Source: Escherichia phage pO91
DNA: 39,650 bases
Sequence record: OR204650.1
Strand: one strand, 5' to 3'
The first letter of the stretch is position 1. Each line of letters starts with the position of its first letter. The translations under genes and the position numbers were made by a program. Shown one piece after another: positions 1 to 4,904 of the stretch. Below the pieces are notes generated by a model. It was not told the DNA's origin. It was given only the letters and a program-made list of their open reading frames with translations, and did not search any database.

Positions 1-50
1 TCTATGAGTCTCTATCTGTATAGTGTTACAGTATAACATTACGTCCTACA

Positions 51-159
51 CCTACAGTCTAACTACCTACAGTCTAACTACCTACAGTCATTGACTCCTG
101 CTGTACCTACAGTCCTACAACCATAAGACGCTCACAGCCTACAGTCATAGACCTACAGT
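51..159. repeat. Left-end array of short direct repeats (CCTACAGT, 6 copies)
   Basis: CCTACAGT at 51, 66, 81, 106, 138 and 152 with irregular spacing; the position matches the short-repeat arrays next to the T7 terminal repeat. Confidence 0.6.
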
Positions 160-600: not shown

Positions 601-648
601 ATCTGAAGGCTCTGAATGATAGTCACTAACAACTGAGAGGATATAACT

Positions 649-1155
649 ATGGAACGTAACGCTAACGCATACTATGAACTGCTGGCTGCAACCGTTGAGG
701 CATTTAACGAGCGTATTCAGTATGACGAAATAGCTGAAGGTGACGACTACAGCGATGCACTGCATGAAGTCGTAGACGGTCAGGTTCCGCACTATTATCA
801 CGAGATTTTCACGGTGATGGCTGCTGATGGTATATACCACGAGTTTGAGGACTCTGGGCTGATGCCTGATACCAAGGACGTAACGCGCATACTGCAAGCC
901 CGCATCTATGAGGCGCTATATAACGACGTGTCTAATAGCTCGGATGTAGTTTGGTTTGAGGCTGAAGAGAGCGACGAAGAGGATGAGTATTGGGTAGTTG
1001 ACGCTAAAACAGGCGCAATAATTGAGCAAGCTGTATCACTTAACGACGCTATTGCACGTGCCAAAGACCTCTATGGGGTGGGGCATCACATGAAAGTCGA
1101 AGACATCAACGATAACGTAGTGTTCGACCCTGCTACTGAAGAGGACTGCGAGTGA
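649..1155 (+). CDS. ocr: Ocr-like DNA-mimic anti-restriction protein (T7 gene 0.3 homolog) with C-terminal extension
   Basis: First ~100 aa align with recalled T7 Ocr ([34 protein letters not shown]); acidic; GAGAGGA RBS; first phage gene after the early promoter; 168 aa versus 117 aa in T7. Confidence 0.85.
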
Positions 1156-1310
1156 TGGTAACTTATGGTCTCTGTCAACAACACGTCAACACCGCCCGGA
1201 TTATGGTCAAGACCGGGCAATTAAACCATGATGCGACTATGCGATACCTGAAAGCGGTCTATGAGGGCCGCAAGCGTATACACGACAGTTTGCACGCTGA
1301 GGATAAACAA
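1155..1310 (+). CDS. Hypothetical early protein (51 aa)
   Basis: ATG overlaps the ocr stop (TGATG); ends with TGA 2 nt before the next ATG; not in the ORF track (under 60 aa). Confidence 0.4.
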
Positions 1311-1312
1311 CA

Positions 1313-1465
1313 ATGAAAATGTATAATGTGGTAGTGGTGAACAATAAAACAGGCGTTAAAGTGGTCATAAATGATTCACCGTTAACCCATTCAGAAGGCT
1401 GCGCTATGTTAGCTAAACTGACCAAATACGCCTGGAGAACCGAAAAATTAGAGCAAATCGGTTGA
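1313..1465 (+). CDS. Hypothetical early protein (50 aa)
   Basis: GAGGA RBS 8 nt upstream of ATG at 1313; hand-translated MKMYNVVVVNNKTGVKVVINDSPLTHSEGCAMLAKLTKYAWRTEKLEQIG. Confidence 0.45.
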   Translation: MKMYNVVVVNNKTGVKVVINDSPLTHSEGCAMLAKLTKYAWRTEKLEQIG

Positions 1466-2222: not shown

Positions 2223-4904
2223 ATGAGCGTCATCTCTATTGATAAACAGGACTTCTCTGATGTGTCGAACGCCATTGAGCCGTTTAACCTGCTGGCTGAC
2301 CATTATGGGCAAGACCTTGCAGTCAAGCAGCTTCAGCTTGAGCATGAGGCATACACTGAAGGCGAGCGACGTTTCATCAAGAACCTTGAGCGCCAGACTG
2401 AGCGCGGGGAACTGGCAGACAATCAGGTCGCCAAGCCTTTGATGCAGACTCTGGTCCCTAAGATTGCGCAAGCAGTCAAGGAGTGGCACGAAGGCCAAGA
2501 CGGGAAGCTGTCAACCTCTCGTCCGAGCGTAGCGTTCACCATGTTGAGCACTGAAGAGAAGGCCGTAAAGGACCGCTCTCTGCGCATCTCCTGTGAGTCT
2601 GCTGCGGTTATCATACTGAAGGTCATCCTCTCCAAGTTGGTCAAGCCTGAAGGGATACCGATTACACCGATGGCCTCCGCGATAGGTCGCACACTTGAGG
2701 ATGAAATCCGCTTCGGTCGAATCAGAGACAAGGAGCAGGAGCACTTCAAGAAGGCGATAGCTGAGAACCTGAACAAGCGAGCTGGGGTATCCTATAAGAA
2801 AGCCTACATGCAAGCGGTTGAGGCCTCCATGCTGGAGCAAGGCCAACTGGAAGATGCGTGGGGGACTTGGAGTCCTACCGAGTCGGTACACGTTGGCATC
2901 AAGATGCTTGAGATTGTCATCCAGTCTACACAACTGGTCGAGCTTAAGCGTTATGGTGCTGGTAATGTAGCGGCTGATGTCGAGATGGTCCATCTGTCAG
3001 AATTCTGGGTCAAGAAGATGGCACAACGTGGCTTCAACCTTGCGGGTATCGCGCCAGTCTATCAACCTTGCGTAGTTCCACCAAAGCCGTGGACTGGAGT
3101 CGTAGGCGGTGGTTACTGGGCTAAAGGTCGCAGACCGTTACCATTGATTCGCTTAGGGTCTAAGTCTGCGGTAGCACGTTACGAAGACGTGTACATGCCT
3201 GAAGTCTATGACGCTGTGAACATCATCCAGAATACACCTTGGAAAGTTAACAAGAAGGTTCTGGACGTGGTGAACATGGTCGAGAAGCTGAACAACACGC
3301 CTATTGATGACATCCCTCAGATGGAACCACTGAAGCCTGAGGACTATGCTGGTGAGACCGAGGAGGAACTCAAGGCATGGAAGAAGGCTGCTGCTGGTAT
3401 CTATCGCCGCGAGAAGGCCCGACAGTCACGCAGGTTGTCACTGAGCTTTATCGTTAACCAAGCGAACAAGTTCTCTCAGTTCAAGGCCATCTGGTTCCCG
3501 TACAACATGGACTGGCGCGGTCGCGTCTACGCTGTCCCGATGTTCAACCCTCAGGGTAACGACATGCAGAAGGGTCTCCTGACTCTGGCAGTCGGCAAGC
3601 CTATTGGTGCTGGCGGTTTCAAATGGCTAAAGGTACACGGGGCAAACTGCGCGGGTGTCGATAAAGTAACATTTGAGGAGCGCATAAAGTGGGTGGAGGA
3701 CAACCACGACAACATCATGGCTGCTGCTAAGGAACCTATGGATAGCATTGAGTGGTGGGGCAAGTTAGACTCTCCGTTCTGCTTCCTAGCGTTCTGCTTC
3801 GAGTATGCTGGCGTAATGCACCACGGCTTGTCTTACAACTGCTCGCTGCCGATAGCGTTCGATGGGTCCTGCTCTGGGATTCAGCACTTCAGCGCGATGC
3901 TTCGTGACCACATCGGTGGACATGCAGTAAACCTAACGCCATCAGGTAAGGTCCAAGACATCTACCGCATTGTGTCTGACCGCATCGAGGAGGAGCTTAA
4001 AGTCCTGCTTGTTAGCGGTACGGACAACGAGATGGTAACTCACGAGGACAAGAAAACTGGTGAGATTACCGAGCGCCTCAAGCTGGGGACACGAGAGCTG
4101 GCCCGTCAGTGGCTGACCTACGGTATGTCACGCAAGGTCACTAAGCGTTCGGTCATGACTCTAGCCTACGGGTCGAAAGAGTACGGCTTCGCAGACCAAG
4201 TTTACGAGGACATCGTGATGCCAGCGATTGACTCAGGGTCTGGCGCTATGTTCACCGAACCCAGCCAAGCGTCTCGCTTCATGGCTAAGATGATTTGGGA
4301 AGCTGTGAGTGTGACCGTAGTTGCTGCGGTTGACGCGATGAAATGGCTTCAAGGTGCCGCCAAGCTGCTGGCTGCTGAAGTGAAGGACAAGAAGACTGGC
4401 GAAATCCTGAAGCCATGCCTTCCGGTACACTGGGTCACTCCTGATGGTTTCCCGGTCTGGCAGGAATACCGCAAGAAGGATACCACACGTTTGAACCTGA
4501 TGTTCTTAGGATCATTCAACCTTCAGCCTACAGTCAACAAAGGAACGAAGAAAGAGCTGGACAAGCACAAGCAGGAGTCAGGCATTAGCCCGAACTTCGT
4601 CCACTCACAAGATGGTAGTCACCTCCGCAAGACTGTAGTCCACACGCACCGCAAGTACGGTGTGATGTCATTCGCAGTTATCCACGATAGCTTTGGGACC
4701 ATCCCGGCTGACGCTGAGTATCTGTTCCGTGGTGTCCGTGAGACGATGGTCGAGACCTACCGCGATAACGATGTGCTGCTTGACTTCTACGAGCAGTTCG
4801 AATACCAGCTTCACGAGAGTCAGCGCGACAAGTTGCCTGAGCTTCCGAAGAAAGGTAAACTGAATATCGAAGACATCTTGTCTTCAGACTTTGCATTCGC
4901 TTAA
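2223..4904 (+). CDS. Single-subunit DNA-directed RNA polymerase (T7 gene 1 homolog)
   Basis: 893 aa, collinear with recalled T7 RNAP over the full length (PFN.LADHYG, FPYNMDWRGRVYA, SPFCFLAFCFEY, GSCSGIQHFSAML, HDSFGT, C-terminal FAFA). Confidence 0.97.
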   Translation: MSVISIDKQDFSDVSNAIEPFNLLADHYGQDLAVKQLQLEHEAYTEGERRFIKNLERQTERGELADNQVAKPLMQTLVPKIAQAVKEWHEGQDGKLSTSRPSVAFTMLSTEEKAVKDRSLRISCESAAVIILKVILSKLVKPEGIPITPMASAIGRTLEDEIRFGRIRDKEQEHFKKAIAENLNKRAGVSYKKAYMQAVEASMLEQGQLEDAWGTWSPTESVHVGIKMLEIVIQSTQLVELKRYGAGNVAADVEMVHLSEFWVKKMAQRGFNLAGIAPVYQPCVVPPKPWTGVVGGGYWAKGRRPLPLIRLGSKSAVARYEDVYMPEVYDAVNIIQNTPWKVNKKVLDVVNMVEKLNNTPIDDIPQMEPLKPEDYAGETEEELKAWKKAAAGIYRREKARQSRRLSLSFIVNQANKFSQFKAIWFPYNMDWRGRVYAVPMFNPQGNDMQKGLLTLAVGKPIGAGGFKWLKVHGANCAGVDKVTFEERIKWVEDNHDNIMAAAKEPMDSIEWWGKLDSPFCFLAFCFEYAGVMHHGLSYNCSLPIAFDGSCSGIQHFSAMLRDHIGGHAVNLTPSGKVQDIYRIVSDRIEEELKVLLVSGTDNEMVTHEDKKTGEITERLKLGTRELARQWLTYGMSRKVTKRSVMTLAYGSKEYGFADQVYEDIVMPAIDSGSGAMFTEPSQASRFMAKMIWEAVSVTVVAAVDAMKWLQGAAKLLAAEVKDKKTGEILKPCLPVHWVTPDGFPVWQEYRKKDTTRLNLMFLGSFNLQPTVNKGTKKELDKHKQESGISPNFVHSQDGSHLRKTVVHTHRKYGVMSFAVIHDSFGTIPADAEYLFRGVRETMVETYRDNDVLLDFYEQFEYQLHESQRDKLPELPKKGKLNIEDILSSDFAFA

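Follow-up and report, generated by a model that had tools for sequence, protein, structure and literature searches.

Ocr is the textbook DNA-mimic anti-restriction protein, which inhibits type I restriction-modification (R-M) systems and BREX, binds the host RNA polymerase and triggers PARIS. Phage T7 Ocr (gp0.3, Pfam family PF08684) is a single domain of 117 amino acids with an acidic tail end. Every match obtained among PDB sequences is this T7 protein of 116 or 117 residues, and no long form has been solved. Two residues of the T7 dimer interface, F54 and L82, also matter for immune sensing: PARIS recognizes Ocr via F54, L82 and negative charge, and its component AriA binds the dimer-interface face (PMC10802264). 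One other homolog, Gp5 of phage SP6, was found to have been tested against BREX, which it inhibited (PMC11341690). The functional literature that we found uses either T7 Ocr or SP6 Gp5, and an experimental study of a long-form Ocr was not found in it. A literature search likewise returned no discussion of a C-terminal extension; genome papers call the gene simply Ocr.

Here, we analyze a long-form Ocr encoded by Escherichia phage pO91 (record OR204650.1; the whole stretch of 39,650 nucleotides is referred to as the window). An initial annotation, made from the sequence alone, had described it as an Ocr homolog of 168 rather than 117 amino acids with an extra C-terminal piece of about 50 residues that might form a small module of its own and change the target range or supply a second function. 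What is new is the recognition of this piece as a discrete, conserved and recurrently deleted domain on a very well-studied anti-restriction protein.

Genomic setting and the Ocr core

The window spans the complete length of a T7-like genome that belongs to the K1F group (Kayfunavirus) and whose first 12 kb share 91-93% nucleotide identity with phages TM1, HC13, PE3-1 and their relatives. The gene 0.3 homolog occupies positions 649..1155 on the plus strand and encodes, from an ATG start to a TGA stop, a long-form Ocr of 168 amino acids ending in the tail originally quoted. K1F gp0.3 (169 aa) is 87% identical to it and has the same two-domain architecture. A Shine-Dalgarno-like GAGAGGA, read from the sequence at 635..641 (plus strand), lies 7 nt 5' of the ATG, and a σ70-like site is located further upstream at 412-441. 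Between the Ocr gene and the phage RNA polymerase gene (2223-4904) there are just small ORFs. The Ocr homolog leads the early genes, ahead of the phage RNA polymerase, and the locus is syntenic with K1F. Near the left genome end, 15-bp tandem repeats of ACCTACAGTCTAACT (2.7 copies, window 50-89) and CCTACAGTTCATAGA (2.1 copies, 138-167) sit inside a run of CCTACAGTC motifs.

Positions 1156-2222 hold four small ORFs of 50-86 aa, none of which matches a gp0.7-type protein kinase in size. In the related phage JSS1, the gp0.7 homolog is the anti-Dnd kinase JSS1_004 (PMC12345140); being a gp0.7 kinase homolog and not an Ocr, it was dropped as a functional lead. The small gene immediately downstream of Ocr (1155-1316, plus strand), which ends in RKRIHDSLHAEDKQQ, is homologous to K1F gp0.35, and similar genes found there in related contigs (L008, L009, L013, L016) are assigned to the precomputed family PF26807 (Phage_T7_GP04). 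The ATG of this gp0.4-like gene overlaps the Ocr stop codon in the sequence TGATG (1153-1157), and a GAGGA within the last Ocr codons (1141-1145), 9 nt before the ATG at 1155, probably serves as its ribosome-binding site. A 2026 paper reports that CapRel, a defence protein, senses T7 Gp0.4 (PMC13423816).

The assignment to the Ocr family is secure. Residues 8-96 match Pfam ocr (PF08684) at E=7.1e-31 (107.1 bits against a cut-off of 25), the protein matches PHROG 2568 ('ocr-like anti-restriction') at E=2.7e-54, and positions 5-111 of a family profile align colinearly to residues 5-111 of T7 Ocr (1s7z, 2y7c; E=2e-33), with about 63% identity over residues 17-94. A full-length AlphaFold model reproduces Ocr helices at 7-25, 35-59 and 75-94. 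With 22 D/E against 5 K/R, the core carries a net charge of -17 at a pI of 4.1 (21% acidic residues), figures that describe its composition, and it evolves at a dN/dS of ~0.13. Both F54 and L82 are invariant in an alignment of 27 long forms; since these residues build the T7 dimer interface, the core very probably dimerizes as in T7 Ocr. Judged by colinearity with the solved T7 protein, predicted helices, F54/L82, charge and dN/dS, residues 1-103 (649..957, plus strand) thus qualify, at the level of sequence, as a bona fide Ocr DNA-mimic core. Within this acidic core, the window allele carries a rare Y63 (835-837), where 106 of 114 long forms have D63.

The window protein shares with T7 Ocr the colinear residues 1-111, F54/L82, the high acidity and the first-early-gene position, and differs from it behind this shared part. 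It is 51 aa longer, and about 57 residues (112-168) lack a T7 counterpart. The distal part of the last T7 helix is replaced by other sequence, the predicted helix stopping at residue 94, and a linker and a domain of ~48 aa are added. The same organization is found in 'Ocr-like' proteins of other Kayfunavirus phages (162-179 aa), which are 68-93% identical to the window protein and occupy the same locus, followed by a gp0.4/gp0.35-like gene. Relative to these long forms the differences of the window protein are only allelic, namely a minority helix allele and the rare residues Y63, R137 and G143.

A linker and a predicted accessory mini-domain

Directly behind the core lies a polyacidic linker (residues 104-113; 958..987, plus strand), in which 8 of 10 residues are acidic. 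Its length varies among homologs from ~0 (CLB_P1, ...FEGEYWVV) to ~30 aa, and its alignment columns are far more variable than those of the core (entropy 0.87 versus 0.31 bits). It is followed by a segment of ~48 aa, residues 114-161 (YWVVD...VVFDP; 988..1131, plus strand), which AlphaFold models, conservation and dN/dS together delineate as an accessory β-β-α-β-β mini-domain. The protein then closes with a short acidic C-terminal tail, ATEEDCE (residues 162-168; 1132..1152, plus strand), which is modelled at pLDDT<50 and is common to short-form Ocr proteins.

We modelled residues 112-168 alone, with an alignment of 22 sequences, and the full-length protein with the 27-sequence alignment. The isolated tail is predicted with high confidence (pLDDT 90.6, pTM 0.74), with strands at 3-7, 13-18, 37-41 and 46-48 and a helix at 20-32, where model residue 1 corresponds to protein residue 112. 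The full-length model (pLDDT 74, pTM 0.48) contains the same elements as strands 114-118 and 124-129, helix 131-143 and strands 148-151 and 157-159, separated from the core by a disordered stretch at residues 106-110 (pLDDT<50). The low full-length pTM and the disordered linker are consistent with domains that hold no fixed orientation to each other. The canonical single-domain architecture of ~110-117 aa accordingly does not describe this protein, which has a confidently folded extra domain at residues 114-161. L82 lies near the start of the last helix, which, on the T7 Ocr structure, would place the module distally in the dimer, on the outer end of either protomer.

Conservation within the module is uneven. 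Eight residues are invariant in the 27-sequence alignment (W115, A134, G145, H147, V150, V158, D160 and P161), and β1 and the β3-β4 hairpin are as conserved as the core (0.26-0.34 versus 0.31 bits). β2 and the helix are variable (0.84-0.93 bits against 0.34 in the β3-β4 hairpin) and occur as a few allelic types. The window allele has R137 (1057-1059) where 102 of 114 long forms have C137, and G143 (1075-1077), which is present in none of the 114. In most long forms C137, H141 (76/115), the invariant H147 and C167 (window 1057-1152) could make up a metal site, probably not a general one; we dropped this Cys/His site as a candidate, as it is broken both in the window (R137, L141) and in K1F (L141).

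The tail had been described as less uniformly acidic than the rest of the protein. This holds for the module by composition, with 16% acidic residues against 21% in the core, and needs qualifying in that the module still carries a net charge of -4 and follows a linker that is 80% acidic. The suggestion that the tail is a separate small module is supported by the confident tail-alone model, the disordered linker of variable length and the clean natural deletions described below.

To place the module among known proteins we searched sequence and structure databases. The tail matched nothing significant in Pfam, NCBIfam, PHROG or PDB sequences. The Pfam family PepSY (PF03413) reached 17.2 bits against a threshold of 24, over 12 hairpin residues only (profile positions 46-59), and YqiJ_OB also remained below threshold. 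A phmmer search of 1.84 billion representative sequences gave no true relative, a weak negative given that the long forms were not returned either, perhaps through a short form standing as the 50% representative. Its single match, P0121, is an ankyrin-like repeat protein hit six times at an AGVSLNDAV motif only and was discarded as spurious. A tail profile searched against a database of 5.8 billion proteins recovered just two fragments, P0122 from a frameshift-split gene and P0123 of 41 aa; known long forms were not recovered, and this search is no census.

At the level of structure, the best BFVD match had an E-value of ~0.01, and many uncharacterized phage proteins of 40-90 aa superposed at TM 0.6-0.77, which suggests that the module has a small α/β shape common among phage orphan proteins. 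The T4 antitoxin Dmd (5hy3_B) and the anti-CRISPR AcrIF9 (7chr_A) are similar in size and fold class, with 10-20% identity and no significant Foldseek or sequence match, and identity to the ClpS and L7/L12 C-terminal domains is equally 10-20%, again with no significant match by either method. The ClpS/L12 topology is β-α-α-β-α-β, unlike β-β-α-β-β, and only a sub-motif would superpose. We treat all four likenesses as resemblances. Homology of the module to the neighbouring ORF 1313-1465, with which it shares a VV..KTG hairpin followed by a helix, was rejected on an hhalign probability of 1.8%, and the extra C-terminal segment of the Ocr of phage IMEP24 had the same outcome.

Distribution, constraint and loss of the module

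Ocr-like genes were detected by tblastn in 572 phage records, 100 of which, K1F gp0.3 among them, cover at least 80% of the 168-aa query. A tail-only query found the module in at least 71 phage records; among the matches listed it always coincides with Ocr, however the gene is annotated. Of the best 120 protein clusters in the 5.8-billion-protein collection, 114 are long forms (162-179 aa). IMG/VR and metagenomes added six further copies, all fused to Ocr, and a scan of 185,579 bacterial and archaeal genomes gave none. The module was thus found only fused to Ocr, in T7-like phages, and the two-domain form is the norm for K1F-like phages, publicly accessible from the K1F genome record onwards. 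The initial annotation had asked whether the extension might be common to many characterized Ocr proteins: common it is, and typical of the genus, but the characterized proteins that we found include no long form.

A comparison of nine long-form genes (Nei-Gojobori) gave a median dN/dS of ~0.26 for the tail, with a range of 0.12-0.66 in which the close-pair values (0.4-0.66) depend on few substitutions. Tail dN is typically 2-5 times core dN. These rates indicate that the tail is coding and under purifying selection, yet evolves faster than the core.

The same data bear on the possibility that a sequencing or assembly frameshift joined what are really a ~117-aa Ocr and a separate ORF. Such a split does exist: metagenome contigs from three runs of one study (L007-L009; L007 2167-2680) have the gene broken into an Ocr of 117 aa and, overlapping it, an ORF of 59 aa for the module alone (MSIGVVDAKTG...), owing to one extra G in a TATTGGG run. 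This split gene may come from a genuine mutant phage or from an error in reading the homopolymer; in either case the split version is the exception and itself carries the indel. The frame is unbroken in the window, as it is in K1F and in more than 100 independent clusters, and codon-level purifying selection spans the core-tail junction. An artefact of this kind is extremely unlikely and is refuted for the window.

Natural proteins that lack the module show how it can be lost. Short K1F-type Ocr proteins (Vec13 and phiHAO2-2, 110 aa each; Bas105, 114 aa; K1E gp3, 108 aa) have cores 85-96% identical to that of the window, with the sister Kayfunavirus short forms at 89-96%. The Vec13 type is missing residues ~105-162, the Bas105 type ~110-163. 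The Kayfunavirus short forms have the last residues in common with the window protein, and Vec13, phiHAO2-2, LS2, Bas105 and PRF-SP1 end in ...(E)DCE or ...ACE, LS2 with one residue more (...FEDEEDCER). In the window, the module is bracketed by two pairs of direct repeats. The 8-bp repeat CTGAAGAG, found in a repeat search (family D2), has its left copy at 962..969 and its right copy at 1136..1143 (both plus strand), at a spacing of 174 bp; a deletion between them in silico yields a 110-aa protein whose length and C-terminal sequence equal those of Vec13 and phiHAO2-2. A simulated deletion of 162 bp between the copies of a second repeat, GAAGAGGA (976..983 and 1138..1145, plus strand), leads to a protein of 114 aa whose C-terminus departs from that of Bas105 by a single substitution. 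Deletion between direct repeats is reportedly well known for the T7 early region from the work of Studier and colleagues.

These junctions refine the picture of a C-terminal extension. The residues are indeed additional, but their position is not purely terminal: the final EEDCE is common to the short forms and the extra piece is flanked by CTGAAGAG, which makes it an internal cassette. All deletion variants retain the last codons, which contain GAGGA, and these codons may be kept for the GAGGA upstream of the gp0.4-like ATG.

Whether the module was gained by some lineages or lost by others can be addressed through the cores. Measured against the cores of K1F and the window, those of phiHAO2-2 and Bas105 show 3-6 differences in 103 positions and those of Vec13 and LS2 8-11, whereas long-form cores differ mutually at up to 28 of 103 (up to 27%). 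A distant T7-like phage also has divergent long forms, and the most divergent ones come from phages without a close cultured relative. Because the short-form cores nest within the diversity of the long forms, the most economical interpretation has the module present in the ancestor of the K1F-like (Kayfunavirus) Ocr clade and lost repeatedly, at least twice and probably on three occasions, through in-frame deletion between short direct repeats of the GAAGAG type. We consider the two-domain architecture and the evolution described here very likely.

Three further proteins have unusual junctions. Salmonella phage PRF-SP1 (L005 504-887) encodes a 127-aa Ocr in which a T7-like core end (...DEYLETLED) is joined directly to SDSVVFDHAAAEDCE, the last strand and tail of a K1F-type module. 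This third junction suggests either an independent deletion or a recombinant of Ocr subtypes. In phage IMEP24 (L006 1168-1728), a 186-aa Ocr has only the first half of the module and runs into another small ORF, with gp0.4 lost; and in P0105 (167 aa), the module is joined to the C-terminal half of gp0.4 at a common RHLK motif.

Possible roles of the module

We propose that the core, as a dimer, would mimic bent B-DNA and block type I R-M and BREX, while the module would hang from the outer end of the core on a flexible acidic tether. There it could act as an accessory protein-binding domain that either neutralizes an additional host or defence factor or modulates host sensing of Ocr. Such a domain would benefit the phage on certain hosts and could be spared on the rest, accounting for both its recurrent loss and the presence of a fast-evolving helix face beside a near-invariant acidic β3-β4 hairpin. 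Signs of an accessory or arms-race role are the 2- to 5-fold higher dN of the tail and the contrast between the variable β2 and helix and the conserved hairpin. The module is not essential to Ocr function, because viable phages with near-identical cores do without it, and it could be only marginally useful. Taken as a whole, a two-domain Ocr with a tethered accessory protein-binding module is the best explanation of the data, with a probability of roughly one half. The functional part of it, protein binding by the tethered domain, is a tentative proposal, and the more specific idea of a previously unrecognized anti-defence or anti-sensor domain co-delivered with Ocr is possible but on balance unlikely.

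Other explanations do without a target for the module. It might be a structural cap or mimic extender that stabilizes the K1F-type core or lengthens the acidic DNA-like surface offered to type I R-M and BREX. The net charge of -4, the linker with its 8 acidic residues in 10, the EEDCE end and a K1F-type core with a shorter last helix than T7 (predicted end at residue 94) all point in this direction; we nevertheless regard it as improbable, as the same core without the module is common and viable (K1E, Klebsiella phages, Vec13, Bas105), a disordered linker of ~0 to ~30 aa suits a rigid extension poorly, and the module, at 16%, is less acidic than the core. It might also be a near-neutral relic, a small early phage ORF that became fused to Ocr, folds, is tolerated, persists by linkage and is lost stochastically. 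Repeated clean losses, the frameshift split, the fusions to gp0.4 or another small ORF and a fold class shared with many small phage ORFs are what such a relic would leave behind. A dN/dS well under 1, however, argues for selection, as do the retention of the module in most sampled clusters and the invariance of its hydrophobic core and polar hairpin in lineages up to 27% apart in their Ocr cores, and we hold a relic to be very improbable.

A third alternative retains an arms race but turns the module towards Ocr itself, as a shield that hides the protein from abortive-infection systems that sense it, such as PARIS, while anti-restriction is kept. F54 and L82 are unchanged, so the core alone should trigger PARIS, and a domain on a tether might get in the way of recognition; rapid evolution and a polymorphism for presence or absence would fit as well. 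On the other hand, a domain tethered flexibly to the far end of the protomer would do little to block the dimer-interface face sterically, and PARIS data for any long-form Ocr were not found in the literature. We accordingly rate such a shield as quite improbable and continue to prefer the tethered accessory protein-binding domain.

Whatever its role, this second Ocr domain, conserved and unannotated, is present in a large set of therapeutic-type coliphages (K1F, CLB_P1, LM33_P1 and relatives). If the module acts on its own target, it would be a new addition to the small anti-defence modules, with Ocr as a carrier for further effectors. Should the anti-defence reading be true, one early protein would disarm DNA-binding defences by mimicry and, in addition, a second, unrelated immunity component; alternatively, the module would blind an Ocr-sensing system such as PARIS. 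The natural, near-isogenic long and short alleles offer a ready-made genetic experiment on which host systems select for the module. Even if the module does nothing measurable, the case documents clean domain loss through short GAAGAG repeats in the early regions of T7-like phages.
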